From IMG/VR virus record IMGVR_UViG_3300028897_000119, positions 1 to 54,700 of that record: a DNA stretch of 54,700 nucleotides; one strand, written 5' to 3'. Position numbers and translations under genes: made by a program. Of this stretch, positions 395-16,638 are shown in pieces (position 1 is the first letter of the stretch; each line of letters opens with the position of its first letter). The DNA is from a virus. Its lineage: Duplodnaviria > Caudoviricetes. The notes beneath the pieces were generated by a model that saw only the letters and a program-made list of their open reading frames with translations, was not told where the DNA came from and did not search any database.

Positions 395-403
395 GGAGGA
401 CGC

Positions 404-1732: not shown

Positions 1733-2033
1733 GAAAAAACAAGCGAAAGCAATGACGTTCCGGCAGCGCCTTCGGGCTGACTGTGCTGACCGGCTCGAGA
1801 AGATCTGCGAGGCAGTGCGGCTCAACGCCATCAATGCCGTGCAGGCATCGGACTCGGCAATCAATCCGTATGACGTCATGCGGCTGATTACCGGGGGGCA
1901 GACAAAGACGCTGCGCGAGCGGCTGATTACCGAGCTGGCCAATGAGATCGAGGCCGAGCTCGAGCAGATCTACAACCGGCAGATCGGTCTCGACTTGGAG
2001 GACGGCAATGGCGTCGAAAAAACCGAAGATTGA
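1725..2033 (+). CDS. Hypothetical helical protein
   Basis: ATG after GAGG; overlaps neighbouring genes. Confidence 0.7.
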   Translation: MAKKKQAKAMTFRQRLRADCADRLEKICEAVRLNAINAVQASDSAINPYDVMRLITGGQTKTLRERLITELANEIEAELEQIYNRQIGLDLEDGNGVEKTED

Positions 2034-2724
2034 GTCGCTGCCGGTCGAGTCAATCGAGGCCACTGCGGCGACGCAGGTACGCAAGCGTCTCGACAAGGAC
2101 ACCATCGAGCAGTATCGGGAGGATCTCGAGAATGGCGACCAGTTCCCGGCGATCATCGTGTTCCGCGAGAAAAACAGCAAGCGCACGGTGCTGGCTGATG
2201 GCTTCCATCGCCTGCTCGCACACATTCACGCCGAGAAGGAAACCATCGACTGCGAGATCCACGAGGGCGACATTCACGCGGCGCTGCAATATGCCCTGGG
2301 TGCCAATGCGCAGCACGGCCTGAGACGCACGAAACAGGACAAGCGCAACGCGGTGGAGCTGGCCCTCAAGGATCCTGAGATCTCGTCTCTCGAGCGTCAG
2401 GAGATCGCTGACTTGTGCCGTGTGCATGTGCGCACGGTCTACAAGATTCAGCGGGAGCTGAATATCGGCGACGAGCCGGCGACCGAGAAACCCAAGAAGC
2501 CGGAAAAGGCCAAGCCCGAGGACAATCGACCCTCGGCCAAGCCGGAGCCGACGCAGGAGGAGGTCGAGCTCGAGGAGCTGCGACAAGCCTGCTCGCTCAT
2601 CAAGGCGTTTCCCTATGGTGGCGAGGACTCCACCAAGCTCGAGCTCACGCCTGACGATGTCGCGGATCTCGAATACGTGAGCACTTGGACGGCGGCGGCC
2701 GTGATCGTGGCGAGGAAAAAGTGA
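2008..2724 (+). CDS. ParB/Srx-like N-terminal domain protein with HTH
   Basis: FPAIIV...LADGFHRL...NAQHGL motifs followed by RQEIADLCRVHVRTV (HTH-like); GGAGG Shine-Dalgarno. Confidence 0.8.
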   Translation: MASKKPKIESLPVESIEATAATQVRKRLDKDTIEQYREDLENGDQFPAIIVFREKNSKRTVLADGFHRLLAHIHAEKETIDCEIHEGDIHAALQYALGANAQHGLRRTKQDKRNAVELALKDPEISSLERQEIADLCRVHVRTVYKIQRELNIGDEPATEKPKKPEKAKPEDNRPSAKPEPTQEEVELEELRQACSLIKAFPYGGEDSTKLELTPDDVADLEYVSTWTAAAVIVARKK

Positions 2725-4238
2725 AGATCGAGACGCGCGAGTATCAGGCGAGCGATGTTGACTATGCGATGGGGCATGGCGTCAACGACCGCGTGATCCA
2801 CTGTGCGCCGACCGGCTCAGGCAAGACGATCATCCAATGCCTGATAGCAAAGCGGGAAATGGATCGCGGCAATTCGACCGCGATCCTGACCCCGCGCAAT
2901 GAGATCTTCACGCAGACGCACGGCGCAGCCGCCTCGATCTGCGGGGCGAACAACGTCTCGACGATGCGCGCCAAGCGTCAGGGCGAATACTGGAATCCAA
3001 TGAATCCGGTGCATGTCATATCCTGGCCGACGCTCATCGCCCGAGTCCGCAAAGACAAAGACTTCTGGTTCCCGAGGGTCGATCGCGTCCTCGTCGATGA
3101 GTGTCACCTTTCGATGGCACCGAAGATCCTCGAGATCCTCAACCACTACGAGCTCAAAGCCCGCGTCGATGGCTACACGGCGACGCCGGCACGGCAGACT
3201 GGCCGAGGCTTGGGCTACTACTTCACCGAGATCAAAAACGTGGTCTCGGTGCGCCAGCTCATCAAGGAGGGATACCTCGCGCCGGTCGAATACTATGGCG
3301 CTGACGCGCCGGATCTCACCGGCATTAAGATCAGGAAGGGCGACTATGAGGTCGGCAAGTTATCGAAAGCCTGCGTCGAGCTGGTGGGCGACGCGATCGA
3401 CAATTGGCTCAGGCTGGCATCCGACCGACACACCATCACGTTCGCCGTTGACATCCGACACTGCGAGGCCCTCGCCGACCGCTTCAATCGGGTCGGCATC
3501 AAGGCCGAGGCGCTGCACACCGGACTGTCGCAGGGCGACCGCGACAGAGTCGTGGCTGCGTTCAAGGCCCAAAAAATTCAGGTGCTCGTCAACGTAGGCA
3601 TAGCGTCATACGGATTCGACGCACCCTCGGTTCGCTGCGTCCAGGTATGCCGGCCGACCAAAAGCATCGTGTTGCACTTGCAGATGATTGGTCGAGGCAT
3701 GAGGCCCAAGCCTGACGGTGGCGAGTGCATGGTCCTCGATCATGCCGGCAACGTGCCGCGCCTCGGCATGGCTGACGATCTGTTCCGCTGGCGCCTCGAT
3801 GATGGCAAGAAAGCCTGCGATAACTGGTCGCGTCATCCGAAATCGGGCGAGGCCGAGGAGTCCAAGCAATACGAGTGTCAGGAGTGCCGGCACATATTCA
3901 GCCGCCAGCGGATCTGCCCGAAATGTGGCTGGCAAGTACCGTTCTCGAAGCGTGACATCGAGGCCAAGGACGCGGATCTGGTGCCGATCGGCAGGAACAC
4001 GGCCAAGCCGCTGCCGCCCGACTGGCCGAGCTATGAGGTGTTCTACGCCATGCTTCGGCACTACGCTCAGGAGAAGGGCCGCAAGCCCATGTGGGCCGTG
4101 TTTACGTTCGAGAAAAAGGCCAAGTGCCGGCCGCCGCACGAATGGAATAATCACGCGCTGGTGCCGCCGTCGCCGCGCGTACTCAACTACATCAGGAGCC
4201 GAGAGATTGCCTTCTATAAAGCCAAGCAACGAGCATAA
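2721..4238 (+). CDS. SF2 DExH helicase (RadD/YejH-like) with C-terminal zinc finger
   Basis: Walker A APTGSGKT, DECH, TATP, GFDAP, QMIGRGMR, LDHAGN, CxxC...CxxC. Confidence 0.92.
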   Translation: MKIETREYQASDVDYAMGHGVNDRVIHCAPTGSGKTIIQCLIAKREMDRGNSTAILTPRNEIFTQTHGAAASICGANNVSTMRAKRQGEYWNPMNPVHVISWPTLIARVRKDKDFWFPRVDRVLVDECHLSMAPKILEILNHYELKARVDGYTATPARQTGRGLGYYFTEIKNVVSVRQLIKEGYLAPVEYYGADAPDLTGIKIRKGDYEVGKLSKACVELVGDAIDNWLRLASDRHTITFAVDIRHCEALADRFNRVGIKAEALHTGLSQGDRDRVVAAFKAQKIQVLVNVGIASYGFDAPSVRCVQVCRPTKSIVLHLQMIGRGMRPKPDGGECMVLDHAGNVPRLGMADDLFRWRLDDGKKACDNWSRHPKSGEAEESKQYECQECRHIFSRQRICPKCGWQVPFSKRDIEAKDADLVPIGRNTAKPLPPDWPSYEVFYAMLRHYAQEKGRKPMWAVFTFEKKAKCRPPHEWNNHALVPPSPRVLNYIRSREIAFYKAKQRA

Positions 4239-4281
4239 CCCTGGGCGCCAGCAACGGCGCCTGATATTCCTCGCCGACCGA

Positions 4282-4521
4282 ATGGCCTTGCTGTTATTGG
4301 AGCTGGTGCGCCGAGACTTTGAGTTTGGCAAATTTTGCTTCGAGGAATTCTACGAGGGTGAGATCCCCGACCATCACCGCAAGAGCAGGGACTACGAGAT
4401 CTGCCTCGATTTTGTCCGCATGATGCTGAGGAAACACGATGAAAAAGAAAGGGCCGAGAGTCAGGAATCCACGGCGCAAGCCGGATCGCTACCAGAACAT
4501 CGAAAAGCACAAGCATCCTGA
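4282..4521 (+). CDS. Possible hypothetical protein (start uncertain)
   Basis: Fills the gap between helicase and DUF1064 genes; no clear Shine-Dalgarno. Confidence 0.3.
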   Translation: MALLLLELVRRDFEFGKFCFEEFYEGEIPDHHRKSRDYEICLDFVRMMLRKHDEKERAESQESTAQAGSLPEHRKAQAS

Positions 4522-4840
4522 CGGCACGGTCTGCGACTCGAAGCGGGAGCTCAAGCGATACGAGGAGCTGCTACTCATGCAGCGCGCCGGCGTGATCCGA
4601 GATCTCACGGTGCATCCACGGTATGCCATCACCATCGGCGGCACACCGATCAAGATTCGCTCGGCTGGCTACCCGAACGGCCGGCACCTCACCTACGTCG
4701 CTGACTTCGAGTATCACGATCTCGAGCGATCCAAGCTGGTCATCGAGGATGTGAAAATGCAAAGCGGCTTCCGCACGGAAGTCTACAAGATCAAGAAAGC
4801 ACTCATGGAGGCGATGGGCTATGCCATTACCGAGTATTGA
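4439..4840 (+). CDS. DUF1064-family putative endonuclease
   Basis: DSKRELKRY...YVADFEY...IEDVK...YKIKK motif. Confidence 0.85.
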   Translation: MKKKGPRVRNPRRKPDRYQNIEKHKHPDGTVCDSKRELKRYEELLLMQRAGVIRDLTVHPRYAITIGGTPIKIRSAGYPNGRHLTYVADFEYHDLERSKLVIEDVKMQSGFRTEVYKIKKALMEAMGYAITEY

Positions 4841-5000
4841 GGCCAAGCGCCGGCAGCTACAGCGCCGAGGCTGGTCGCCGAAGCGGATCGAGCAGTACCT
4901 CAAGGACTGGAAATGGAAGATCCACCCACCACTCGAAACGCGCGGCAATGCCCGCCGGCCCAAGGCGGTCGGCAAGGGGAGCCTGCCTCATGGTAGGTAA
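4821..5000 (+). CDS. Small basic hypothetical protein, 59 aa (MPLPSIEAKRRQ...); not in the ORF track
   Basis: GGAGG at 4807; open frame to TAA at 5000; bridges the DUF1064 and Ref-like genes. Confidence 0.55.
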   Translation: MPLPSIEAKRRQLQRRGWSPKRIEQYLKDWKWKIHPPLETRGNARRPKAVGKGSLPHGR

Positions 5001-5445
5001 AACCGCGCCGATCAAGGTCTCGCACCGCCAGCGATTCAAGATCATCAAGGAGGCCATTGGCTGTCTGCCTTGCGCCTGTGTCGGCTACCTCGATGTGCAT
5101 ACGAGCATCGAGCATGTCACCGATGCGGGGCGCCGCCTTGAGGGCGAACACGATGCGACGATAGGGCTATGCGCATGGCACCACTTCGGCACTTGTCACC
5201 CTGGAAGAACTCGGCAGTGGATGTCCGGCGAATTCGGGCCTAGCCTTGCTTGGGGCCGGCGAGTGTTCGAGGAGCACTTCGGCGACGAGGTCACGGTGCT
5301 GCTACCCTTGCAGGATCTCGTCATCGGCTGGTACTTGGAGTCGCCGTGGCCTGACTATACAATGCCCCGGAACATTGCCCGCAAGCTGCGAATAGAATGG
5401 ATCGAGCTGAATCATGCCTACACTACACGGTCGAGCGAAGCGTAA
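4990..5445 (+). CDS. Ref-like (recombination enhancement) HNH nuclease
   Basis: GCLPC...EH...TIGLCAWHH...GPSLAWG...FEEHFG pattern. Confidence 0.75.
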   Translation: MVGKTAPIKVSHRQRFKIIKEAIGCLPCACVGYLDVHTSIEHVTDAGRRLEGEHDATIGLCAWHHFGTCHPGRTRQWMSGEFGPSLAWGRRVFEEHFGDEVTVLLPLQDLVIGWYLESPWPDYTMPRNIARKLRIEWIELNHAYTTRSSEA

Positions 5446-5539
5446 AGAAAAATCCGCTGTTTCCCCGCCTCGCCTTGATTTGTGGAGATTTCATCAGAAT
5501 TCGGGACCGGAACTCGGTGCCGGAGAGGTTTGATCGCCT

Positions 5540-5869
5540 ATGTCAAAGATGGGTCGAGGACCAGCCGCCAAGATAGACGCGCCTCGCGATCTGCCGAGCG
5601 GCATTCCCTGGGTGCAATGGCGGGTCGAGAATGAGGACGAGATCGCGCGGTTCCTTGAGGGCTTCGAGGTCCGTATGCGGCCGGCTCCGGGGAATCAATT
5701 GCTGATTCAGGGCCGCTATCATCGCTGGTCGCTACAACTCAGCCCCGGCGACTGCCTCGTGCTACAGCCTGCCTCGGCTGAGTACCCGCGCGAGCGGCTC
5801 GGGCTCGTCCGTGTGCCCGAGTCCGCAAAGTTCCGCGAGTCAGAGAACCCCGAGGACTTCCGCTTCTAG
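5540..5869 (+). CDS. Hypothetical protein
   Basis: GGAGAGG Shine-Dalgarno; converges on the minus-strand operon. Confidence 0.65.
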   Translation: MSKMGRGPAAKIDAPRDLPSGIPWVQWRVENEDEIARFLEGFEVRMRPAPGNQLLIQGRYHRWSLQLSPGDCLVLQPASAEYPRERLGLVRVPESAKFRESENPEDFRF

Positions 5870-6043
5870 CGTGAATTGCACGGCGTAGGGAAAGCGGCGG
5901 TCGCCGGCGATCCACATGCGAATAGCCCGCTCCGAGCAGCCAAGTATTTCCTCGGCCACTTGGCGCTGAGTCTTGCCAGTGCTGGCGATTAGCTGGCGCA
6001 GGTACTCAGGATCGGGATTGTATTCGGCCGGATTGGGTTTCAC
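5840..6043 (-). CDS. XRE-type HTH transcriptional regulator; last gene of the minus-strand operon
   Basis: YLRQLIASTGKTQRQVAEEILGCSERAIRMW. Confidence 0.85.
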   Translation of the reverse strand: MKPNPAEYNPDPEYLRQLIASTGKTQRQVAEEILGCSERAIRMWIAGDRRFPYAVQFTLEAEVLGVL

Positions 6044-6267
6044 CGCGCCTCCCTTGCGGCCTGCCGCCTTGCCATATATTCGAGCACCGGGACCGGCAGA
6101 CTACGCCACTCGACGGCCAGCGCGTCGAGCAGGTATTGCCGGCCCTCGGCGGCCGTCTCGGAGTATTCCGAGTCCGGCGGCCATAGGCAGCTAATGGTTT
6201 CGATGGCGTCTACTCGGCGCCGGTCAAGCTCGCGACGGTCGTCGCAGTGGTGGCAACAATTGCTCAT
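6040..6267 (-). CDS. Early hypothetical protein
   Basis: Coupled ORF; GGAGG Shine-Dalgarno. Confidence 0.7.
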   Translation of the reverse strand: MSNCCHHCDDRRELDRRRVDAIETISCLWPPDSEYSETAAEGRQYLLDALAVEWRSLPVPVLEYMARRQAAREAR

Positions 6268-6509
6268 GGCTCGCCTCCTGGGTAAGTAAGCATGAAATCG
6301 TCAAGCGCGTCATCGGTGACGCCTGCCTCGCGATCCTCCTTGTCTCGCTGCTCGATGGCCGCATACCAGCCCTGCACGAATGCGTCCTGCTGTACGCAAT
6401 GCAGCGGGTCAACGTCGCCCTCGTAGCAGTCGCAGCAAATTGGTTCGCCAGTGGCGGCGGCGAACACCTCAAAAATCGGGTCGCCGCACTTCTCGCATAG
6501 TCTCGTCAT
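6264..6509 (-). CDS. Early protein with small zinc finger
   Basis: CEKC...CCDC; ATGA coupling. Confidence 0.7.
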   Translation of the reverse strand: MTRLCEKCGDPIFEVFAAATGEPICCDCYEGDVDPLHCVQQDAFVQGWYAAIEQRDKEDREAGVTDDALDDFMLTYPGGEP

Positions 6510-6739
6510 TGGTTCGCCCTCCGGTGCTTGGCCTGTCCTGGGCCGTGGAAGTGGTGACGCTCGCCCGAGGTGAACACGACTGTTCCCACCTCGAACCAGC
6601 TTTGCCAGTGGCAGACCCGATGCACAAGGCCGTCATCGCCTATGCACTGAATCTGCTGCCCCGGCAATGGATTGCCGAGGCGCCATGTTGTCGCGGGCTC
6701 GCCCTTGCCCTTGCTGATAGATACGTGTGTCGGTTTCAT
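6506..6739 (-). CDS. Early hypothetical protein
   Basis: GGAGG Shine-Dalgarno; ATGA coupling. Confidence 0.65.
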   Translation of the reverse strand: MKPTHVSISKGKGEPATTWRLGNPLPGQQIQCIGDDGLVHRVCHWQSWFEVGTVVFTSGERHHFHGPGQAKHRRANQ

Positions 6740-7338
6740 CGTGGACCCTCCGAAAATGCGCCAATACATTCGAGCGAGTGCCGGACGCAATAGCCGAACT
6801 CTTTGGCCGCGTCGGTGTCGCTGGTGGTTTCTGTCGCCTGCTTGCCGTAGGTAATGCGGTGCAGGGCCTCGCCGTCGCCGAGGTACTTGTATTCCCACTT
6901 AACGGGATGATCGCCCTCGCTCCACTCGGTGAGAATCATCCACGGCGGCGGCGGCGGCAGCCCCTCGCGGAACATGCCGGCCGCGTCGCAGTGGGCAAGG
7001 TCACGCTCGCGCGCAAGCCTCGCGATCTCGTCCAGGGTGTCGGCGCTCCACTCCTCCTCAGCTTCGAGGAGGTGCAGCACGGCGGCCGCGAAGTCGGCGC
7101 GCCGCTGGTTGGTCTCCTCGATACTGCCTCGCGGGCCGGAGCCGTTGAACCAGTTATCGGAAACCCAAGCGGTGCCGCACTCCTCGCCCTCGGAGGTGCG
7201 CAGTATCGCCGTGCCGGCCTCGGAGTCGGCCAGCGTATTGATTAGCTTCGGCGCGTTGAGTACGTGCGCCATCTCCTCGCTCAAGCGGTCATCGAAAGCC
7301 TCGGCGTGAGTGTCAACGCTGATATGTATGAACCTCAT
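6736..7338 (-). CDS. Early hypothetical protein, acidic, probably multi-domain
   Basis: GAGGAGG Shine-Dalgarno; 200-aa ORF. Confidence 0.75.
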   Translation of the reverse strand: MRFIHISVDTHAEAFDDRLSEEMAHVLNAPKLINTLADSEAGTAILRTSEGEECGTAWVSDNWFNGSGPRGSIEETNQRRADFAAAVLHLLEAEEEWSADTLDEIARLARERDLAHCDAAGMFREGLPPPPPWMILTEWSEGDHPVKWEYKYLGDGEALHRITYGKQATETTSDTDAAKEFGYCVRHSLECIGAFSEGPR

Positions 7339-7559
7339 GGCTGCACCTCCTCGGCGCTGTCGAAAAACGCGCCCGAATAGGTGCCGATATGCAAGTCGCC
7401 CGCCTCGTCGATCTCGGCCGGATAGATACCGCTCGGGACATCGTCGGGGTCGTCTTGGCGCAGGATTAGCGCCTTTGCGTCGCGCTGGTCGGGGTCGTCA
7501 TAGGGCCCGTAGAGCGTGGGCTCGACATCCTGATAAATGAACAAAACGTAAAATTTCAT
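7335..7559 (-). CDS. Early, very acidic small protein (74 aa)
   Basis: ACGCGAGGAG leader; Asp-rich sequence. Confidence 0.75.
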   Translation of the reverse strand: MKFYVLFIYQDVEPTLYGPYDDPDQRDAKALILRQDDPDDVPSGIYPAEIDEAGDLHIGTYSGAFFDSAEEVQP

Positions 7560-7614
7560 CGTGTTACTCCTCGCGTGAACGGGCGCCGACACTGTGCCGG
7601 CGCCCTTGTTGGTT

Positions 7615-7866
7615 TCAGTAGCGCGCAAGCTGCTCGATCCAGTCGAGGCCGTTGCTTATGGGTGCCTCGATCCGCTGGCAGCCCTCGCCATTGCTGAACG
7701 GGTACAGGATCGTGCCCCGCCTTGCTTCTCGGTCGTAGTAAAGCCAGCGGTCGCCGTGCGCGGCGAAGCCGAGACCCTGGGCGAGCGCCTCGACATACTC
7801 GCGCTGCGCCCATACCTGCCGAGCCTCGCCCTCGCGGGGCTCGGTGAGTGTCTTGCTGATTGTCAT
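7615..7866 (-). CDS. Early hypothetical protein (MTISKTLTEP...)
   Basis: AGGAGG Shine-Dalgarno directly after the upstream stop. Confidence 0.7.
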   Translation of the reverse strand: MTISKTLTEPREGEARQVWAQREYVEALAQGLGFAAHGDRWLYYDREARRGTILYPFSNGEGCQRIEAPISNGLDWIEQLARY

Positions 7867-7876
7867 GGCGTACCTC

Positions 7877-8161
7877 CTAGAATTCGTCGGCCTCGATAAT
7901 TCCCCGGCCGCACTCGTTGCACGTTTGCCCGATGGCGTCGGGCTCGGCCCAAGTCCCGCAGTCGGGACAAATAGCAGACTCCGGCGCGGTAGCCTCGAAG
8001 CTCCACGCGCCGCAAGTGTTGCCGTTAATGTCGAGCAGGTTCCCGCAGTCATGGCCGGCCTCGATACGGTTGGCGGCCTGCCGTAGCAGGCGCGCCGTCT
8101 CAGTCTCGCCGCCGTCCGCGAAAGCGGAGCCGTTGCCCTCGATCTCAAGACTAAGCCGCAT
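7877..8161 (-). CDS. Early conserved phage protein (AF...E.ARLL...DINGN.G) with C-terminal zinc finger
   Basis: Family motif recalled from small phage proteins; CPDC...CNEC. Confidence 0.75.
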   Translation of the reverse strand: MRLSLEIEGNGSAFADGGETETARLLRQAANRIEAGHDCGNLLDINGNTCGAWSFEATAPESAICPDCGTWAEPDAIGQTCNECGRGIIEADEF

Positions 8162-8813
8162 CTTTCGCCTCCTTCGCGCGGTAGTCGCGCAGGAACTCGA
8201 TAACGGCCGCCATCTCGCGGGCGCTGAGGTCAATCTTTACGCTGCCGGGGCTGCGGTATTCAATCGTCAACGGCCCGCCCTCGATCTCGCGGACAAAATA
8301 GGGCCGGTCGGCCTGCCGGTGCTCGTTGTGAGTGTCGCGCGTTGCTTTCCATAGCAAGTCGATAAGCTCGGCCTCGCCGTCGCTGCTCTTTTGCCGGTCG
8401 GCTGCGATCTCCTCGGCCCTCGCATAAAGGCGCTCGTATTCCGGCAATAGCCGGCGCTCGATGTCGCGCGCGATAGCCTCGGGAGTCCTTGAACGGGCGC
8501 ACGAGATAACCGGCCGCGACTCTTTCGGGTTCCACATTGTCGAGGGGTCCACGGTCATCGTGCGGCCATCGGGGTCGGCGTAAGTCGGCCAGCCCAGGGC
8601 GCGGAACTCGAAGCGGTCGGGCTTGTTCCATACCACCTCGGCCACTATCTGCCGGCCTTGCCCGTTGCTGAAATAGTGCCAGCGGCTCCATGCGTCCTGT
8701 TCCTCGGGGTCGGGGTCAAGCTGCCAGCCGTTGCCGAGTGCCTCGGCTACTGGTGCAAGCTGCTCCCGCATATATGCGCGCTCCTCGGCGCGTTCTTTCT
8801 GGTAGTCGTTCAT
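8151..8813 (-). CDS. Early hypothetical protein
   Basis: ACGCGAGGAG leader; 220-aa ORF. Confidence 0.8.
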   Translation of the reverse strand: MNDYQKERAEERAYMREQLAPVAEALGNGWQLDPDPEEQDAWSRWHYFSNGQGRQIVAEVVWNKPDRFEFRALGWPTYADPDGRTMTVDPSTMWNPKESRPVISCARSRTPEAIARDIERRLLPEYERLYARAEEIAADRQKSSDGEAELIDLLWKATRDTHNEHRQADRPYFVREIEGGPLTIEYRSPGSVKIDLSAREMAAVIEFLRDYRAKEAKDAA

Positions 8814-8857
8814 GCTCTTACTCCTCGCGTAAGGGTTACGGGTCCAATGCGACCCAC

Positions 8858-8882
8858 CAAGCCGCCGACTCGCGGCGGCTTG
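8858..8882. repeat. Intergenic hairpin CAAGCCGCCG-N5-CGGCGGCTTG, copy 1
   Basis: Perfect 10-bp stem, identical to the stem at 10358-10382. Confidence 0.85.
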
Positions 8883-8891
8883 AGGGGGGCA

Positions 8892-9038
8892 CTAATGCCA
8901 GTCGTGGACGTAGCCGCCAAGGCGGCGAATCTCGGCCATTGCCTCGCGGTGCTCGGCCTCGCTGCGGGTTATCCACGTATTGCCGGCCATGCCGGCGCGC
9001 GGGGGCGAATAGCCCCAATGTATGACGCTGTACCTCAT
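8892..9038 (-). CDS. Early small protein (48 aa)
   Basis: GGAGG Shine-Dalgarno; ATGA coupling. Confidence 0.6.
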   Translation of the reverse strand: MRYSVIHWGYSPPRAGMAGNTWITRSEAEHREAMAEIRRLGGYVHDWH

Positions 9039-9295
9039 AGCCGCGCCTCCTGCGTTGTTAGCCAGCGGTCGAGGCGTCGCTCCTCGGCTTCGAGGTCGGC
9101 GATAAGCTGCAACGACTCGGCCAGCGTCCACGCGGTCGAGCCGGTCGCCTTTTCGCGCGCTCGCTGCGCGATCTCGACAATGGCGCCGGCTAGTTGCTCG
9201 TCTACCGGCCGCGCCGACTGCATGATGCAGCCGACACGCCGGCCCAGGGTGCGGGCGCCTTGCTCCCGCAGTAGCTCCACCGCGCTAGTAGTCAT
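9035..9295 (-). CDS. Early hypothetical protein
   Basis: GGAGG Shine-Dalgarno; coupled to neighbours. Confidence 0.65.
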   Translation of the reverse strand: MTTSAVELLREQGARTLGRRVGCIMQSARPVDEQLAGAIVEIAQRAREKATGSTAWTLAESLQLIADLEAEERRLDRWLTTQEARL

Positions 9296-9653
9296 AGCCG
9301 TAAGCCTCCCCGCCCTCGGCGTCGCACCAATTGGCCAGCCGCTTCGCGGCATAGATGGCGCTCAGCCCGTTAATGTATTCGGCCTGCTCCTCGTAGTCGG
9401 TGAACGTGTCGGCGATGCGCTCGCCGTCGCGGAACACCTCAAGGCCGGCATAGCCGAGCGAATCGCGGCGGGCCAGCACGTAGAGCGCGCCGCCCTCCTC
9501 GAATAGATCGAGGTCGTCGCCGGTGCCGGCGCCGATGGCGTAGCGGTGCCCGCGCCATATGACGACAGTGGCGGGGTTATAGCGGCCGGCGGCTCGCTGC
9601 TCCTCCCATGTCTCGCGGTCTAGCTGATACTCGAACGGTTTAAGGGTTCGCAT
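9285..9653 (-). CDS. Early hypothetical protein
   Basis: ACGCGAGGAG leader. Confidence 0.75.
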   Translation of the reverse strand: MRTLKPFEYQLDRETWEEQRAAGRYNPATVVIWRGHRYAIGAGTGDDLDLFEEGGALYVLARRDSLGYAGLEVFRDGERIADTFTDYEEQAEYINGLSAIYAAKRLANWCDAEGGEAYGYDY

Positions 9654-9870
9654 GTCGTGACTCCTCGCGTTGAATCCAATAGGTGAGATCGCCGAGGGTG
9701 CGGCCGACTGGCCGCCACTCCTCGGATTTATCGCAGGGCTGCGCGTACCATGCGCGGACCCACTCGCCCCGGTCGTTGTAGACTTTGCGCCGGGGGTTAA
9801 TGGTCAAGCCCTTGCGGGCGCGCCACTGGCGGCCCGCGATGCGGAATACTCGGGTTTTCTCGTAGGCCAT
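9640..9870 (-). CDS. Early basic hypothetical protein
   Basis: GAGG Shine-Dalgarno; overlaps next gene. Confidence 0.65.
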   Translation of the reverse strand: MAYEKTRVFRIAGRQWRARKGLTINPRRKVYNDRGEWVRAWYAQPCDKSEEWRPVGRTLGDLTYWIQREESRHANP

Positions 9871-9873
9871 CGG

Positions 9874-10302
9874 TCACACCTCGAAGCGGTCAAAAACGGG
9901 GATAGGCGAGGCGCTCGGGCCTCGGCTGTCGCTGGTGTCGATGTAGTGGCCGCCGAACATACCGCCGAGGCGGGGCCGGCCGTTGTCATCGACCGGGACG
10001 GCCTTGGCGCGCATTAGCTTGTGCTGCTTGGCGTAGCAAAGCGGCCGGCCGTCCGCGTCGTAGCGGTCAAGCTGGCCGATCTCGCCGAGCCACTGCGGCG
10101 ACGCCGCCAGCATGTAGCCACTGGCGCAGCCCTGCGGGTCGAGGTCATAGACCAGCGCCAGCGCCGGCATATCGTCGCGCGCCTCGAATATCTCCGGCAT
10201 ACCGTCGCCGATCAGGCAGGCGTGACGCTTGCCGCTGGTGACGCCGCCGGCGGTGCAATCCATGCCCTGCACGAAAACCATTAAGCCTTTCAGTGTTGTC
10301 AT
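9874..10302 (-). CDS. Early conserved phage protein (DCTxGG...MFGG...TSDSR...DRxE family)
   Basis: Family motif recalled; ACGCGAGGAG leader. Confidence 0.8.
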   Translation of the reverse strand: MTTLKGLMVFVQGMDCTAGGVTSGKRHACLIGDGMPEIFEARDDMPALALVYDLDPQGCASGYMLAASPQWLGEIGQLDRYDADGRPLCYAKQHKLMRAKAVPVDDNGRPRLGGMFGGHYIDTSDSRGPSASPIPVFDRFEV

Positions 10303-10357
10303 TGTCTTACTCCTCGCGTTGTCGCGGACCCTGGGCCCGCTGTTGTGAAAGCACTAA

Positions 10358-10382
10358 CAAGCCGCCGGCGCGCGGCGGCTTG
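10358..10382. repeat. Intergenic hairpin CAAGCCGCCG-N5-CGGCGGCTTG, copy 2
   Basis: Perfect 10-bp stem, extended by GCAC/GTGC. Confidence 0.85.
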
Positions 10383-10391
10383 GTGGTGCCC

Positions 10392-11336
10392 TCAGATAAG
10401 GGCAAGCTGTACCGGCTCGGCCAGCGGCTCGGCCGCCCGCCTCGCGACGCTTGCGACGCCGCCCCACTGGTCGGCCATCGCGCGCGCTATGCCGGCAAAG
10501 AATCGGCTCCGCTTGTGGCCTCGGTCGTCGCTCGGGCCCATACGGTCGGCGCCGCATGGCGACTGATTCGCCCACCGCTTAACCGGCTTGCCCTTGTAGG
10601 TGTCGAGGCGGGGCGCGACATAGTCGGCGGGGTCCGCTTCGAGCTTGGGCAGGCCGTGCAACCATAGGCCGGTTTTCTTGCTGTGGTCGTGGCCGTACTC
10701 GTAGGGCTGCACGTATTGGTCGGCCGGCCGTATCTCGGTGCCGATGCAGCCCACCGGATTTTCAAGCGCCCACCGCTCGACCGGCGCCGCCATGAGATCG
10801 CGGACAAAGTCGAGCGCCTCGATACGCTTGGCCTCGCGCTCGGGGTCACGCTGGCAGCGCCAAAGCTGGCAGGCGGCGAGGTAGGTACAGGGTGGGTGGA
10901 AAATGGCGAGGTGGTAGCCGTCGCCGATAATGTCCCGAACGTCGCCGGTGTAGTGCTGCCCCTCCGGCGACTCGGTCGGCAGGATGTCGCAGCTTGTGGC
11001 GTCGTGGCCGGCGGCCGCGAAAGCATCGCGGACAGTGCCCGAGAATTCGCAGCCGACGAGTACGCGGCTCAGGTGGTAGCCGCTGGCGCTGGCGCGCTCC
11101 TCGGCCGCTGCGATCTCGTCGCCATAGTCGGCGATCGACTCGGCGCCGGGGCGCTGCGTATAGACCGCCTCGGCGAGTAGCTCGCCGGTGTCGATGTAGT
11201 CGGCGGCCACGGCGTCGCCGTTTCGCACGTTGAGAAGCTGCGAGGCGGTCAGTGCGGCCCGCACGGCTGCCGAGTAGTCGGCAGCCAAGCGGGTCACGTT
11301 CAGCCGGTCCAGTCGAATCAGGCGGCCGCTGGTCAT
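10392..11336 (-). CDS. DNA cytosine-C5 methyltransferase-like protein with about 85 aa of N-terminal extension
   Basis: VLVGCEFSG (motif I-like), HPPC (catalytic), ENP, C-terminal RSRFFAGIARAMADQWG. Confidence 0.85.
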   Translation of the reverse strand: MTSGRLIRLDRLNVTRLAADYSAAVRAALTASQLLNVRNGDAVAADYIDTGELLAEAVYTQRPGAESIADYGDEIAAAEERASASGYHLSRVLVGCEFSGTVRDAFAAAGHDATSCDILPTESPEGQHYTGDVRDIIGDGYHLAIFHPPCTYLAACQLWRCQRDPEREAKRIEALDFVRDLMAAPVERWALENPVGCIGTEIRPADQYVQPYEYGHDHSKKTGLWLHGLPKLEADPADYVAPRLDTYKGKPVKRWANQSPCGADRMGPSDDRGHKRSRFFAGIARAMADQWGGVASVARRAAEPLAEPVQLALI

Positions 11337-11749
11337 TGCTTCGCCTCCACGTTGCGGCGTACCTGCGTCGCGTTGTACTCGGCGGCGTCGGCAGCATAGG
11401 CGCGCTCGGCGCTGCGGCGGTCAAGCTCGGCGCGCATGGCGTCCCTGAGTGCCCGCTGATAGTTGGGCAGGCAGCGATAGCCGTGGCCGTCCATTGTCAT
11501 CGCCTTGTCGCCGCCAGCCATATCGGCATGGCAGGCGCTCGCGTTCATCAGCTTGGCCTCAATGCTTCCCCGGCTGCGGCCGGCTAGTGGTCCGGTATCG
11601 CCGGGGCCGTTGCTGCGGCTGATATGGCGAATCATGGCGGCCTTGTTGTAGTCCTCGCGGCGCCGGACTCGGTCGAGCATGTCGAAGTAAAGGCGGCAAA
11701 GCGCAAGATTCTCGGCAGCCGTCCAAGGGGTGCGTTTCGTGACAGTCAT
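11333..11749 (-). CDS. First early gene: stand-alone domain resembling the N-terminus of HNH/DUF3883 restriction-type nucleases
   Basis: WTAAEN...YFDML...YNKA...RSRGSIEAKLMNASA...GY...NYQ pattern; no nuclease domain follows. Confidence 0.65.
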   Translation of the reverse strand: MTVTKRTPWTAAENLALCRLYFDMLDRVRRREDYNKAAMIRHISRSNGPGDTGPLAGRSRGSIEAKLMNASACHADMAGGDKAMTMDGHGYRCLPNYQRALRDAMRAELDRRSAERAYAADAAEYNATQVRRNVEAKQ

Positions 11750-11818
11750 GGTGTTGGTCCTCGCGTTGTAGTGTCGGCCTAGTGAGGGCCGGCTCGCTCG
11801 TTTGAGGGAGCATCGCGG

Positions 11819-11848
11819 ATTCTGAGGCACAATGTGCCGGGATGTCAA
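11819..11848 (-). promoter_or_regulatory. Sigma70-like early promoter TTGACA-N18-CAGAAT with palindromic operator GGCACAnTGTGCC in the spacer
   Basis: Consensus -35 directly upstream of the minus-strand operon; palindrome at 11826-11838. Confidence 0.7.
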
Positions 11849-11902
11849 GCGGCTAGGCTGAGGAGTAGAATTCCCGGCAATCCGGCAGGCATAGGGTGCA
11901 TT

Positions 11903-12556
11903 ATGCAAAACACTGACGCGCAAACGAAAACCGACCCGGCAGGCAGCAACTCACACAAGGGAGGGAGACCCACCACCTACCGGGAAAGCGTCGGCGCTCT
12001 TATCTGCGCGCGGCTCAGCGAGGGCGAAACACTGACCGAAATATGCAGGACACCGGGAATGCCAGCACGGCAAACGGTCCACCAGTGGCGGCGCCGATTT
12101 CCGCAATTCGACGACGATTACATGCGCGCGCGGGCCGATGGCATGGAGTCAATGGCCGATGAGCTACTGACGATAGCGGACGACGACACCGGCGACCTAC
12201 TGCCGGACGGCTCGCCGAATCACGCCAACGTCGGCCGTGCCCGCCTCATGGTGGACGCTCGCAAGTTCCTCATGTCGAAGCTGTCGCCCCGGTACGCCGA
12301 CAAGGTGGAGCACCAGCACACCGGGGCAGTGGCGCACCTCGTGACCCTCGACGACCGGGAGCGTATGCGCCGGCTCGCCTCGTTCATGCTTGAGGACCAG
12401 CGCGCCGGGGCCTTGATCGAGGGGCAGGCCGGCCGACTGCATAATGCAGCCGAGGAGGGCAGCCAAGCCGGCGACCCTGCCCGCCCCACCTCGGAGGGCG
12501 AACCGCAGCCGGGGGCAATGAGTAAGGACAGCGACGGCGATGGCGATGGATCGTGA
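11903..12556 (+). CDS. terS: Terminase small subunit (Sf6/P22-like)
   Basis: GRPTTY...ICARLSEGETLTEIC...GMP...W...YMRAR...ARLMVDARKFLMSKLSPRY; upstream of TerL. Confidence 0.9.
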   Translation: MQNTDAQTKTDPAGSNSHKGGRPTTYRESVGALICARLSEGETLTEICRTPGMPARQTVHQWRRRFPQFDDDYMRARADGMESMADELLTIADDDTGDLLPDGSPNHANVGRARLMVDARKFLMSKLSPRYADKVEHQHTGAVAHLVTLDDRERMRRLASFMLEDQRAGALIEGQAGRLHNAAEEGSQAGDPARPTSEGEPQPGAMSKDSDGDGDGS

Positions 12557-12661
12557 TAGGGTTCCTTATCCCACGGCGGGGGGCCGCTGTGGCGCGGCCA
12601 GGGCTGCTGCTGCACCATCCTCCCCACGATTTTCCGAAAAAATCCCGCGTGGAGGTGAATA

Positions 12662-12847
12662 ATGCTCGAATATGCACTTTGGTTTTGGTTGGTTCTTCCG
12701 GGCGGTCCCATTTCGGCGCCGGTCGAGATTGGGGTGTATCGCACCTTGGAGGCATGTGAGGCTGAGGCAGCCCGCCAAGCTGATGCAGATGCCCGCGAGG
12801 AGGCGCGTTTTGGAGCGGTATGGCGGTGTGTAGAGCGTCCGAAGTGA
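12662..12847 (+). CDS. Small hypothetical protein with hydrophobic N-terminus
   Basis: GGAGGTGA Shine-Dalgarno. Confidence 0.65.
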   Translation: MLEYALWFWLVLPGGPISAPVEIGVYRTLEACEAEAARQADADAREEARFGAVWRCVERPK

Positions 12848-13125
12848 TTGGCTGTGAGGAGTTTATTGAGGGCTTGAAGCGGCAGAAGCCGGCTGATGGA
12901 TTTGGGCTGGTTTTTGTGGATCCGCGTCGTTCGGGTGTGGAGGTGATTCAGGTTGAGAATCCGAGTTTTGCGTGGCCGTTGCCGGTGGAGGACATGGATC
13001 GGTGTCGGCGGTTGTTGGTGGTGAGCCCGCTGATTGCGGACGATTTGGTGTCGGAGTTGAATGCGTCGCCGGTTGAGACGATGGTGAGGTGGTATCGGTT
13101 TGCGATGTGGGAGGAGCGCGGGTGA
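12844..13125 (+). CDS. Hypothetical protein
   Basis: GTGA coupling on both sides. Confidence 0.6.
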   Translation: MIGCEEFIEGLKRQKPADGFGLVFVDPRRSGVEVIQVENPSFAWPLPVEDMDRCRRLLVVSPLIADDLVSELNASPVETMVRWYRFAMWEERG

Positions 13126-14765
13126 GCGATGCGGTGATTGACGAGTTATTGGCGTCGTATCGGTCGATGACGCCGGAGGCTCGAGCGGAGTTGGATTCGC
13201 TGATAGATGCGCGCAGCCAGGGCAAGATGTGGGTGCCGTCGCCGGGGCCGCAATTTGAGGCGGTGCATTGCAAGGCTGATGTGTTGTTGTATGGCGGTTC
13301 GGGAGGGTCGGGCAAGACGGATCTGATACTCGGGCTGGCGTTTGAGCATCACAAGCGATCGTTGATTGTGCGCAAGCACTATGTGGATCTGACGGCGATC
13401 ACGGATCGCGCGAAAGAGATCAACGGCACGGACAAGGGTTACAACGGTTCGTTGCCGCCGAGGCTGACCACGGTGAATGGTCGGGTGATTGATTTTGGTG
13501 GTTTGGCGAAGCCGGGGGATGAGGAGCACTGGCAGGGTCAGGCGCACGATTTGCTGGCGATTGACGAGGTGGTTCAGAACCGCGAGGCGCAGGTGCGGTT
13601 TTTGATGGGTTGGGTGCGCTCGGCCGATCCTGAGCAGCGTTGTCGGACGGTATTGGCGTCGAATCCTCCGACCTCGAGCGCGGGCGATTGGATCATTCCG
13701 ATGTTTGCGCCGTGGCTCGACAATCGTTACGACAATCCGGCGGCTCCTGGGGAGCTGCGGTGGTGCGTGACGATGGTGGGTTCGGATGGCAAGAGTTTCG
13801 ATTTGTGGGTGGATGGGCCGGACTCGAAGATCGAGTCGGGTCGTACCGATCCGGTGACAGGGGAGCCGATTTACCTGATTCCGCAGTCGCGCACGTTCAT
13901 TCCGGGCCGGCTGGCTGACAATCCGTTTTTGGCGCGCACGAATTACGCGGCGCAGCTCGATGCGTTGCAGGAGCCGTTGCGATCGGCGATTCGTGACGGC
14001 AATTTCATGGCGGCGCGGCAGGACGAGCCGGATCAGCTCATTTCGACGGCGTGGATTCATGCGGCGCAGAATCGCTGGCGCGAGTGCAATGGTCAGCCGC
14101 CGCGTGGGGTGCCGATGTGCGCGATTGGTGTGGACGCGGCGCGCTCCAAGGATGAGACGGTGCTGGCGCCGAGATATGACGGTTTTTATCCCGATCTGAT
14201 TTGTGTGCCGGGGGTGGAGACGCCGCACGGTCGCGATGTGGCGGCGCTGGTGTTGAAGTACCGCAAGCATGGCGCGTTGCCGGTGATTGACTGCGGTGAG
14301 ATGAACGGTGCGGAGGCGTTTGCGCATCTTGAGGAGAACGGGGTGCGCTGTATCCGGCATGTGGGCATGGACAAGTCATCGGCGCGCACCAAGGAGAAGA
14401 TGCTCAAGTTTTTCAACAAGCGCGCCGAGGTGTACTGGAAATTCATGGAGGCGCTCGATCCTGAGCAGGATGGTGGTTCGCCGATCATGTTGCCGGACGA
14501 TCAGAAGCTCGTTGCGGATCTCACGGCGTTGTCGTGGGAGCTGACGCCGAACGGTATCAAGGTGACGTCGAAGCGTGACGTTGTGGAGATGCTCGGTCGT
14601 TCGCCGGATCGTGGCGATGCGGTGGTGCAGTCGTGGAGTGCGGGTGACAAGGCGATTACGCACCTCGGCGAATGGCGCAGCGATCAACGCGGGGGTATCA
14701 TCGGCAAAAATCGGCGGCCGGCCGTGAACATGGGGCCACGGAGGGCTCGCGTAAGGAGGCACTGA
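13122..14765 (+). CDS. terL: Terminase large subunit
   Basis: PGPQ, YGGSGGSGKT, AIDE, ASNP, IGVDAA (RNase H-like), SPDRGDA. Confidence 0.95.
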   Translation: MSDAVIDELLASYRSMTPEARAELDSLIDARSQGKMWVPSPGPQFEAVHCKADVLLYGGSGGSGKTDLILGLAFEHHKRSLIVRKHYVDLTAITDRAKEINGTDKGYNGSLPPRLTTVNGRVIDFGGLAKPGDEEHWQGQAHDLLAIDEVVQNREAQVRFLMGWVRSADPEQRCRTVLASNPPTSSAGDWIIPMFAPWLDNRYDNPAAPGELRWCVTMVGSDGKSFDLWVDGPDSKIESGRTDPVTGEPIYLIPQSRTFIPGRLADNPFLARTNYAAQLDALQEPLRSAIRDGNFMAARQDEPDQLISTAWIHAAQNRWRECNGQPPRGVPMCAIGVDAARSKDETVLAPRYDGFYPDLICVPGVETPHGRDVAALVLKYRKHGALPVIDCGEMNGAEAFAHLEENGVRCIRHVGMDKSSARTKEKMLKFFNKRAEVYWKFMEALDPEQDGGSPIMLPDDQKLVADLTALSWELTPNGIKVTSKRDVVEMLGRSPDRGDAVVQSWSAGDKAITHLGEWRSDQRGGIIGKNRRPAVNMGPRRARVRRH

Positions 14766-15010
14766 TGTCAGGACTAAAAAACACCGGCAAGCGGTTGGTC
14801 AATTTCTCGCTCGGCAAGGGCTACAAGACCAACAAGGAGCGGCGCATGGAGAAGGAAGCCAAGCAGCAGGCCGCACTCGACAAGATCTACCAGTCAGCGG
14901 AGATGCCGGATGACGAGTACATTCGCCGCAACGAGCGGCGCAAGGCCGCCAAGCGTCGCGGCTCTCGCACCTCCAACATTCTTACCGAAGCCGATGAGAC
15001 ACTCGGATGA
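14765..15010 (+). CDS. Small basic pre-portal virion protein
   Basis: AAGGAGG Shine-Dalgarno; ends R.S.ILT...TLG, as I recall for this position in similar podoviruses. Confidence 0.7.
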   Translation: MSGLKNTGKRLVNFSLGKGYKTNKERRMEKEAKQQAALDKIYQSAEMPDDEYIRRNERRKAAKRRGSRTSNILTEADETLG

Positions 15011-16638
15011 TGCGACCCAAGGATCTCATTGCTCGTGGCGAGCAGCTTTTCAAGGAGCGAAAGGCCATCACGACGCTGTGGCAGGAGATCGCGGAGAATT
15101 TCTACCCGCAGCGCGCGGATTTCACGATTCGGCGTTACGTGGGCGAGGAGTTCGCCGAGCATCTCTACTCATCGTATCCAATCCTGGTTCACCGGGATTT
15201 GAGCAATTCCTTCGCCGCCATGTTGCGGCCGCGCAAGAAAGAGTGGTTTCAGATCATCGTCGATGATTACGACGAGCTGCCGATCCCCGGCAAGATCTGG
15301 CTCGACGAGGCTGGCAAGCGAATGCGTCGCGCGATGTACGATCGCAAGTCGCAATTCGTGCGCGCGACGGCCGAGGGTGACGCGGATTTCGCGGCGTTCG
15401 GGCAGTGTTGCATCACGCGCGATGTGAACTGGCACACCGAGTCGCCGCATCTTCTTTATCGGTGCTGGCATCTCAGGGACGTAGCCTGGGCCGAGCGCGC
15501 TGACCAGCAGGTCGGCGAGGTTTACATCAAGTGGCAGCCGCGCATCAAGGAGCTGAAAGCGATGTTCGGTGCTGGCGCGATGCACCCTAACATCGACAAG
15601 GTCAAGAAGGACCAGAATCTCAGCAAGGTCGATTGCATGAGGCTCGCGGTGACGAGTGACGTCTACGCGGGGCAGATGGATCAGGGTGCCGGTTATCCGT
15701 GGATGATCGTGTACCTCGATGTGCAGAACAGCCACATCATCAATGAGCATCCGGCGTGGAGCTCGGGTGTGACGTTGCCGCGCTGGCAGACGGTATCGGG
15801 CTCGCAGTATGCGTATTCGCCGGCGGCCGTGGCCGGTTTGCCGGACGCGCGTTTGCTGCAGGCGATGAGCCTGACGCTGCTCGAGGCTGGCGAGATGAGT
15901 GTGCGCCCGCCGATGATTGCGACGCAGGATGCGATTCGCGGTGACATTCAGCTCTACTCGGGCGGCATCACATGGGCTGATGTCGAGTACGACGAGCGCA
16001 AGGGTGACGTATTGCGGCCGATCACGCAGGACCGGCGCGGACTGCCGCAGGGCTACAACGAGCGCGACAATCAGATGGCGATGCTCGCTGAGGCGTTTTA
16101 CATCAACAAGCTAACGCTGCCGCCGCCGGAGGGCGACATGACAGCGTTCGAGGTCGGTCAGCGCGTGGAGGAGTATGTCAGGGCAGCCTTACCACTATTC
16201 GAGCCGATGGAACACGAGTACAACGGCCAACTTTGCGAAGATACCTTCGACACCCTCCTACGCGCTGGCGTTTTTGGATCCGTGCAGGACATGCCGCGCG
16301 AGCTCCAAGGACGCGAAATTCACTTCCGGTTCGAGTCGCCATTGCACGAGGCGATCGAGCGCAAGGACGCATCGACGTTCATGGAGTCAGCGGAGCTGAT
16401 TCGGGTGGCGCTCGAGATGGATCCGACTGCGCTGGCGCATTACGACAGCGGTTCGGCCCTGCGCGCGGCGCTCGAGGGCATCGGTGTGAAGCACAAGCAC
16501 ATCCGTACCGAGCGCGCGGCCCAGGAGATCATTCGCTCGAATGCCGAGCAGGCTCGTGCCGAGGAGGAGGCCGAGCTGGCCAAGACGCAGGCCACGGCGG
16601 CGAATCAGTTTGCGGCTGCGCAGGAGAAAGTAGCGTAG
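15007..16638 (+). CDS. Portal (head-to-tail connector) protein
   Basis: WQEIAENFYP, PRW..SG..Y.YSP, MTAFEV..R.EE motifs; 543 aa after TerL. Confidence 0.92.
   Translation: MMRPKDLIARGEQLFKERKAITTLWQEIAENFYPQRADFTIRRYVGEEFAEHLYSSYPILVHRDLSNSFAAMLRPRKKEWFQIIVDDYDELPIPGKIWLDEAGKRMRRAMYDRKSQFVRATAEGDADFAAFGQCCITRDVNWHTESPHLLYRCWHLRDVAWAERADQQVGEVYIKWQPRIKELKAMFGAGAMHPNIDKVKKDQNLSKVDCMRLAVTSDVYAGQMDQGAGYPWMIVYLDVQNSHIINEHPAWSSGVTLPRWQTVSGSQYAYSPAAVAGLPDARLLQAMSLTLLEAGEMSVRPPMIATQDAIRGDIQLYSGGITWADVEYDERKGDVLRPITQDRRGLPQGYNERDNQMAMLAEAFYINKLTLPPPEGDMTAFEVGQRVEEYVRAALPLFEPMEHEYNGQLCEDTFDTLLRAGVFGSVQDMPRELQGREIHFRFESPLHEAIERKDASTFMESAELIRVALEMDPTALAHYDSGSALRAALEGIGVKHKHIRTERAAQEIIRSNAEQARAEEEAELAKTQATAANQFAAAQEKVA

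Follow-up and report, generated by a model that had tools for sequence, protein, structure and literature searches.

In T5-like phages (T5 and BF23, Tequintavirus), Type I and Type II restriction-modification (R-M) systems restrict only when their sites lie in the first-step transfer (FST) region, and the rest of the genome carries many R-M sites without being restricted, as a passage in PMC10644984 states. For Murciavirus (Autographiviridae), parts of PMC12455610 describe a leading region that is hypervariable and rich in anti-defence genes and in which alone a restriction motif matters; its authors suggest that it is chiefly the segment injected first that restriction filters. In conjugative plasmids, the leading region, first into the recipient and rich in anti-defence genes, is reported there to be depleted in R-M targets (PMC12455610). 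The principle of first-segment restriction is already published, with experiments for T5-like and T7-like phages only and as a matter of discussion for plasmids. Davison and Brunel, in 1979, are reportedly the source for restriction of the T5 FST, and classical restriction-site avoidance over whole phage genomes is said to have been treated by Sharp in 1986, Rocha et al. in 2001 and Rusinov et al. in 2018. In T7, the early genes run inward from the leading end. Here we describe a site-free segment in an uncultured tailed phage, IMG/VR record IMGVR_UViG_3300028897_000119, all 54,700 bases of which form the window analyzed. Its first and last 144 bases are identical, which makes it a circular assembly of 54,556 bp with an arbitrary coordinate 1. 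Positions 5410-12917, hereafter the zone, are free of RGATCY and SAGCTS and lie within a wider stretch, 4727-13179, that is free of CTCGAG. We are confident that this avoidance is real and due to position-specific selection.

The zone resembles the T5 FST, a terminal segment of about 8% of the T5 genome that holds early genes and enters first, in showing the same signature of site-free early genes. T5, however, is a siphovirus whose terminal repeats, about 10 kb long, hold the FST, and it has a non-coding, repeat-rich injection-stop region. The zone, by contrast, covers 13.8% of its genome, includes the small terminase gene terS and belongs to a phage with podovirus-like virion genes and with assemblies that reveal no physical ends; at least 6-9 palindromic words are avoided in it, in addition to the 42 missing from the whole genome. 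At the zone borders we detected no notable repeats, structured DNA or long non-coding stretch, a collapsed repeat being invisible in contig depth. As in T7, an operon starts close to one of the zone borders and would be read inward from a predicted promoter of host type. The Murciavirus case differs in that it concerns a single Type I motif and is experimental, the present one being a set of Type II-like palindromes read from sequence. In addition, Autographiviridae draw in their remaining DNA with an RNA polymerase of their own, to which none of 20 open reading frames (ORFs) scanned outside the zone gave a match, and the present terS is Sf6-like, which predicts headful packaging. Conjugative plasmid DNA enters single-stranded from oriT, whereas the present element is a tailed-phage genome. 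Compared with genome-wide palindrome avoidance in phages, by which this genome lacks 42 of the 64 palindromic hexamers (6-36 in relatives), the zone constitutes a second, position-restricted layer.

Exact counts agreed with what the sequence-only reading had reported by eye for its three words. CTCGAG, claimed to occur at least 13 times in 1-4726 and next at 13180, is present 84 times in the record, 13 times within 1-4726 and then again at 13180; RGATCY, claimed to be absent from 5319 to 12917, has 127 sites and none between 5313 and 12918. For SAGCTS (127 in the record, none between 5404 and 13752), the absence and the persistence of more than 20 AGCT were borne out, with AGCT counted 27 times in 5410-12917, but one of its forms, CAGCTG, is missing from the whole genome and is not specific to the zone. 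To the right, the sites reappear at 12918 (RGATCY), 13180 (CTCGAG) and 13752 (SAGCTS). The avoidance of all three words was real, yet it proved wider than these. Absent from the zone were CTCGAG (84 copies outside), GAGCTC (43), GACGTC (28), CTGCAG (27), GGATCC (26) and AGATCT (22), and a single copy each was left of CGATCG (50 outside), TGCGCA (32) and TGGCCA (25). Palindromes made of G and C only, as well as GAATTC, CAATTG and TCGCGA, were kept. Many of the 42 palindromes lacking genome-wide would be expected 10-38 times each. We take the zone-only words to correspond to XhoI-, SacI-, BstYI-, PstI-, AatII- and PvuI-like specificities.

Of the 16 palindromes present in 15 or more copies, 9 had a largest circular gap that overlapped the zone. 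When 7.5-kb windows were slid along the genome and scored for 15 common palindromes, 87 of 110 missed none; the window from -8056 to -556 relative to the start of the large terminase gene terL missed six, with a summed expectation of 31.6, and non-overlapping windows outside the zone missed at most one. Every one of the zone's 25 GATC occurs as CGATC or GATCG, as had been noticed from the sequence; DGATCH is absent there and occurs 192 times outside. This DGATCH-free zone was unique to the present genome among six compared. Where GATC overlaps CG, cytosine methylation of the overlap by the enzyme that the phage itself encodes may have protected it and let it survive, an idea at odds with the purge of CTCGAG, GACGTC and CGATCG, all of which contain CpG. 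A non-palindromic word, SCTGAC/GTCAGS, was absent from the zone as well (GCTGAC 0 versus 78 outside, CCTGAC 0 versus 62), with codon resampling giving expectations of 4.1-6.4 and 2.5-4.1, respectively, in the zone; we know of no specificity for SCTGAC.

In an unbiased scan for depletion over 1992 strand-symmetric 6-mer classes, four passed the Bonferroni threshold, namely CAGCTC, CTCGAG, AGATCC and GCTGAC, and three of these belong to words singled out by the sequence-only reading. The depletion persisted in shuffles that preserved the proteins and the codon usage of the zone (1000 per word): 10.7 ± 2.5 SAGCTS and 5.1 ± 1.9 RGATCY were expected, none of either was observed, and for neither word did any shuffle give so low a count. 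The suggestion that avoidance proceeds through synonymous codons uncommon elsewhere was confirmed by the choices made for Leu-Glu, Glu-Leu and Gln-Leu. Leu-Glu pairs in the zone were written CTCGAA (5), CTTGAG (3), CTAGAA (1) and CTTGAA (1) and never, in 10 pairs, CTCGAG, which accounts for 49 of 60 outside. After GAG or CAG, the 17 leucines of the zone used CTT (11), CTA (5) or TTG (1); CTC and CTG, at 0/17 in this context, made up 103/180 in other contexts (Fisher 1.5e-6). No such effect of the neighboring codon was seen outside the zone (81/97 after GAG or CAG, 528/637 elsewhere). Overall, CTT and CTA account for 32% of leucine codons in the zone versus 7% outside.

That the avoidance follows position rather than gene or strand also held, as it extends over terS and a conserved ORF (g5540) on the plus strand and over about 14-15 ORFs on the minus strand. 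For the union of zone-only words, conserved backbone genes of the zone contained one site where 8.9-14.8 were expected and its variable genes one where 12.5-20.4 were expected, whereas six genes outside contained 67 against an expectation of 33-50. Since backbone and variable genes are both purged, the avoidance is not confined to mobile orphan genes.

We examined nine genomes, the present one (G000) included, with a largest-gap test for CTCGAG, in which positions are given relative to the terL start. Four of them (G000, G001, G004 and G009) have a CTCGAG-free stretch upstream of terL. The gaps run from -8368 to +91 in G000, from -9497 to -220 in G001 and from -10559 to -285 in G004, in each case ending at most 300 bp from the terL start, and none of 2000 simulations for each gave a gap as large; in G009 the gap runs from -11232 to +2015 (0/1000 simulations). 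In all four genomes the gap has its left edge 0.1-0.8 kb upstream of the gene for a Ref-like nuclease. As this edge stays within that distance of the gene despite differing zone lengths, the borders follow genes and not distance. Among Leu-Glu pairs in the zone, CTCGAG was used in 0/11 (G000), 1/7 (G001), 1/15 (G004) and 2/11 (G009), and outside it in 59/72, 57/86, 59/85 and 31/50, respectively. Six backbone orthologues together contain no CTCGAG in these four genomes and 8, 11 and 12 in G002, G003 and G005. Of the shorter loci, L132, whose methyltransferase is the closest to that of G000 (72%), has no CTCGAG in 9.2 kb versus 9 in 6.1 kb, and is also depleted in GGATCC (0/7), RGATCY (3/15), GAGCTC (2/9) and DGATCH, control words not being depleted. 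CTCGAG counts were 2 versus 13 in L145 and 3 versus 10 in L139; L109 and L114 showed no CTCGAG depletion, and four other loci were too short for a judgement. The same borders recur in four of nine genomes and in L132, but the pattern is not universal among relatives.

Trees of TerL and of the methyltransferase were built from 15 taxa, with L009, L015, L016, L023 and L033 dropped as duplicates. On both of them the CTCGAG-free trait requires at least three changes, the sisters G001 and G003 differing in it. The rest of each trait-bearing genome keeps 43-86 CTCGAG, and the word is purged genome-wide in none of the nine genomes (lowest G007, with 17 sites at 53% GC). Avoided palindromes are near-binary across the relatives, with 0 versus 30-110 copies: from G000 to G005, CAGCTG occurs 0, 65, 0, 53, 0 and 0 times and GTCGAC 0, 74, 48, 49, 0 and 40 times. 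Between 21 and 36 palindromic hexamers are missing in the relatives, only 6 in G007. Several words avoided only in the zone here are purged from whole genomes elsewhere, with G004 having 1 AGATCT, 2 GGATCC, 0 CGATCG and 0 GACGTC, and G005 having 0 GAGCTC. By this genome-wide purge the words behave as real R-M targets, in keeping with the earlier suggestion that they point to host R-M specificities.

Two explanations dispense with present selection on position. The word gaps could arise as a by-product because small early genes differ in amino-acid composition, in codon usage or in GC content, and be brought out by a post hoc choice. The zone does have a higher GC content (61-67% in 1-kb bins versus about 56-64% elsewhere) and a different codon usage, its proteins would lead one to expect 2.8-4.4 CTCGAG and not the 11-13 that follow from the outside rate, and the three words had been picked by eye. 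However, the unbiased scan placed the same words on top, chance is rejected even by shuffles in which the proteins and the codon usage of the zone are retained, the choice of a codon varies with its neighbor precisely where a word would form, and the same gap with the same borders occurs in diverged genomes, so that we regard this explanation as highly improbable. The other explanation is historical. The early operon and terS would be a recombination module whose words were purged genome-wide in past lineages or hosts before it joined the present backbone; with fast purging and slow neutral regain, it would display the union of old avoidances without positional selection today. The family is indeed mosaic, in that terS identity does not track that of TerL (the closest TerL relatives, at 75-77%, have a terS of only 40-45%), and the right zone border is the junction of the terS and terL modules. 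Relatives do purge zone-only words genome-wide (RGATCY, CGATCG and GACGTC in G004, GAGCTC in G005), L132 with its closest methyltransferase has several of the same depletions, and the zone carries a k-mer signature of its own besides its GC content.

Against this history, the higher GC upstream of terL is common to most relatives, those without the trait included, and the two trees are largely congruent, with G000 branching deep in both. An earlier indication of opposite affinities of methyltransferase and TerL, a mosaic signal from ranked identity differences, was dropped when proper trees proved largely congruent. The remaining genome is free of 43 words, and the zone lacks 42 of these as well: its own composition would lead one to expect 57-70 such sites there and two were observed, both ATATAT. 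Taken from any of five relatives as donor, a piece of 7.5 kb would carry 17-46 forbidden sites into the genome. Being free of the genome-wide forbidden words and of extra ones besides, the zone follows the rules of its present genome plus additional ones. We thus saw no sign of the recent import that the sequence-only reading had named as its possible refutation. No relative above about 79% TerL identity was found in the metagenome scan apart from the same phage and one C-terminal fragment at 85%, and with the nearest relative that far off a very recent import from an unsampled donor may have occurred. No complete relative avoids such a superset of words, and the genome lowest in CTCGAG among the nine, G007, still has its 17 sites. 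CTCGAG-free zones are kept across lineages whose methyltransferases are 30-40% different; a neutral relic should have decayed over such divergence, and selection would have to maintain the state. We consider the module history unlikely.

What remains is to account for selection that is limited to one segment. Since a double-strand cut should kill wherever it falls in the one genome that comes in, selection can be unequal only if exposure is unequal, and the known route to unequal exposure is staged entry. We propose that the zone would be a restriction-site shadow maintained by selection, which would extend from the Ref-like nuclease gene to the terL start and be free of the target words of host Type II enzymes, the remaining genome tolerating the zone-avoided words. 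It would comprise a leftward early operon driven by host RNA polymerase, plus terS, and would be the leading, first-entering segment in a staged entry of DNA, exposed in the cell before early products neutralize the enzymes and while the remainder is not yet exposed. Words purged genome-wide would then mark enzymes beyond the reach of the early products, and zone-only words enzymes that these products neutralize. Packaging usually starts at terS/terL, and by last-in-first-out ejection would begin there. The zone adjoins terS/terL, and a conserved sigma70-like promoter would drive its operon away from that side, a geometry that fits first entry and does not prove it. We put entry order as the cause of the position-specific avoidance at a little below an even chance. 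The avoidance, its selective character, its borders set by genes and its recurrence in relatives are shown by the sequences; what we infer is the order of entry, a pause during it and a role of the early genes against restriction.

Position-specific selection might also operate independently of entry order. Shielding of the remaining chromosome could come from DNA-binding virion proteins injected along with it or from a modification that spares the zone, or the early operon may have to stay intact and transcribable for longer in a race between cleavage and early anti-restriction expression. The evidence for selection in situ applies equally here; the phage has very large virion proteins (2270 and 1496 amino acids) and its own C5-methyltransferase, and the survival of GATC only where it overlaps CG hints to an interplay with methylation. 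Yet any double-strand cut should be lethal, which brings back the need for unequal exposure, a methyltransferase from the previous cycle would cover the zone too, CpG methylation fails to explain the purged CTCGAG, GACGTC and CGATCG, and delayed entry is the only mechanism known to shield a phage chromosome apart from an end-proximal 14%. We judge this alternative about as improbable as the module history.

A number of observations weigh against the entry-order proposal. CTCGAG taken by itself is marginal, with 2.8 copies expected in the shuffles (p = 0.044) and 4.4 with outside codon usage (p = 0.011). Among the relatives, G003, G007 and G008 show no clear avoidance upstream of terL, G002 has no CTCGAG-free stretch there (it lacks GGATCC, TCGCGA and TGCGCA in that region instead), and in G005 (L077-L079) the CTCGAG gap lies on the opposite side of the genome, at +22.4 to +29.8 kb from terL (p = 0.002). 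None of the known anti-restriction families (Ocr, ArdA, ArdB/KlcA and the like) was found by PHROGs and Pfam among the 17-20 zone ORFs, nor did PADLOC or NCBIfam match any zone ORF to such a family, the NCBIfam search with 10 proteins giving no hits. Virion ends are not mapped by the assemblies, every one of which is circular or spans terS-terL; contigs from three runs bridge terS-terL and close the 54,556-bp circle, and the breaks of two further assemblies fall at other places. In relatives, contigs ending 1.1-1.3 kb upstream of terL were considered as marking a possible physical end, a reading rejected because G006 shows assembly breaks in terS and the variable block. Sf6-type terS goes with headful packaging and permuted ends, as in Sf6 and P22. 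For headful packagers, avoidance in a leading region should not matter, according to the authors in a passage of PMC12455610. For Caulobacter phage SR18, whose TerL has about 40% identity, the annotation gives a terminal repeat of 2,078 bp over terL and part of terS; if the present ends were SR18-like, about 1.9 kb with 10 sites of the three words would precede the zone at the last-packaged end. The consulted passages of PMC11053796 contain nothing on the termini of the SR18 group.

The continuation of entry poses a further difficulty. A PHROGs scan of 20 ORFs outside the zone, comprising all the large ones and part of the smaller ones, gave no RNA polymerase family, and the genes on the zone's left are oriented opposite to the direction in which the DNA is presumed to enter. 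Transcription in the style of T7 could therefore not pull DNA in past the zone, and no motor for a second step of entry is evident. Taking these points together with those in favor, staged delivery in this marine podovirus-like lineage, with a leading segment of 7.5-11 kb between terL and the Ref-like nuclease gene despite an Sf6-type terS, is a tentative proposal that we hold with less assurance than entry order as such.

The gene order Ref-like nuclease, g5540, helix-turn-helix gene, variable block, methyltransferase, first operon gene, terS and terL is common to the relatives. The RecA-dependent nuclease gene (4837-5445, plus strand) at the left border is Ref-like by PF16786, with 46.9 bits against a cut-off of 26.9, and by phrog_1588. 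It is followed by g5540 (5540-5869, plus), a conserved ORF of 109 amino acids that converges with the end of the leftward operon; homologues occur in 12 loci, and PHROGs and Pfam gave no family match. The operon itself runs on the minus strand from 11749 to 5840 and consists of a 138-amino-acid gene, the methyltransferase gene, about 11-12 small ORFs and a small helix-turn-helix gene. Its promoter would lie in a divergent intergenic region of 153 bp (11750-11902) with back-to-back sigma70-like consensus matches, TTGACA-18-CAGAAT leftward and ATGTCA-18-TAGAAT rightward, the only two in 4300-13300. A TTGACA -35 box is present in the equivalent gap in 18 of 21 loci.

The first operon gene (11333-11749, minus; 138 amino acids) is conserved, with homologues in 23 loci. 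The N-terminal part of its product resembles the PADLOC defence candidate PDC-S36 (E = 1.9e-14), and the protein was modeled as all-helical with a predicted local distance difference test (pLDDT) score of 93.5 and no fold match in the PDB or in BFVD, a library of viral structures. The second gene (10392-11336, minus) encodes a C5-cytosine DNA methyltransferase-like protein of 314 amino acids (phrog_757, E = 3.2e-53), for which no Pfam or NCBIfam match at E <= 0.01 and no PDB sequence match were obtained. Its model (pLDDT 76) gave DNMT3A, DNMT1, M.HaeIII and DNMT2 as best Foldseek matches, with E values from 2.6e-4 and probability 1.0 but template modeling (TM) scores of only 0.3-0.43. P148, C150 and E192-N193-P194 are invariant in 16 aligned methyltransferase sequences, and we take them to be the catalytic Pro-Cys and Glu-Asn-Val-type motifs.

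Downstream of the methyltransferase gene lies a hypervariable block of about 11-12 small ORFs (6040-10302, minus), homologues of which were mostly not found in relatives. Several of these ORFs are acidic, namely 6264-6509 (isoelectric point (pI) 4.1), 6736-7338 (pI 4.6), 7335-7559 and 9285-9653 (pI 4.5), and two acidic orphans had no named cluster or relatives in the protein atlas. The small block ORFs are candidate host-takeover or anti-defence genes. Contigs of relatives (G006, made up of L082-L084, and also G011 and G014) tend to break inside the zone, in terS and the variable block, which suggests hypervariability of the region at the population level. The last operon gene (5840-6043, minus) encodes the small helix-turn-helix protein, matched by phrog_3865 (E = 5.8e-13) and more weakly by other regulator families; its HTH_3 match stayed below the Pfam cut-off. 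In one clade, 1.1-2.4 kb of extra DNA lies between the homologue of the first operon gene and terS (L014, L021, L006, L013, L050, L062, L024 and L109) versus 125-750 bp elsewhere, and this clade is mostly without a CTCGAG-free zone.

On the right, terS (11903-12556, plus) lies within the zone and is of the Sf6 type (phrog_1482, E = 4.2e-38; PF20901, E = 5e-30, 104.1 bits against a cut-off of 27). Two small plus-strand ORFs, 12662-12847 and 12820-13125, the latter with homologues in 10 loci, lie between terS and terL, where the zone has its right edge, and terL (13089-14765, plus) is the first gene beyond it. GC skew reaches +0.19 to +0.29 at 13001-15000, in the terL region, far above other regions, and G/T-rich codons set in from about 12820. 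TerL is about 40% identical to the TerL of Bordetella phage BPP-1, Acidovorax phage AP1 and the Caulobacter SR18 group; a sequence search with it against solved structures gave nothing useful. In the PHROGs scan, the virion module presented a podovirus-like gene set, with a portal/adaptor gene (15007-16638), a major head protein (18628-19494), a tail protein of 924 amino acids, the internal virion protein of 2270 and the fibre-like protein of 1496. The block left of the zone (plus strand) is devoted to replication and recombination, with ParB-like and helicase genes besides the Ref-like nuclease, and Erf and a RecE-like exonuclease are encoded on the minus strand at 52.3-53.8 kb.

The phage was recovered nearly unchanged in three runs from three studies (2017 and 2021; marine sediment and seawater) and in two further assemblies, with only 21 variable positions in the first 20 kb across the three runs. 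The whole phage also forms a single contig in a metagenome-assembled genome titled Acidithiobacillales, a binning result that is at best a weak hint to the host and is not used as evidence here. Megablast against phage collections gave no match for the zone or for 13.5-33.5 kb, and seeding the search for relatives with two other proteins found none.

Our literature search found no such case in BPP-1-like phages or phages with an Sf6-type terS, and no detection from sequence of several avoided words at once. The signature described here was read from the DNA of an uncultured lineage with a different architecture from the known examples, it involves many Type II-like words at the same time, its borders are sharp and set by genes, and it recurs in diverged relatives. 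Going by its terminase type, the phage in which it occurs should not show the effect. A count of restriction sites over an entire genome can mislead as to the sensitivity of a phage. If the entry-order proposal is true, such a shadow would be a computational read-out of the first-entering end, and of the extent of the first step, in uncultured phages, and it would tell which restriction specificities of the host are neutralized (the zone-only words) versus not (the words purged genome-wide). The orphan early genes and the first operon gene would then be new anti-restriction proteins, some of them directed against enzymes of Type II, whose known inhibitors are few. Shadows of this kind could be scanned for in metagenomic phages, where they would predict leading ends, staged entry and the restriction repertoires of hosts and would nominate anti-restriction genes.

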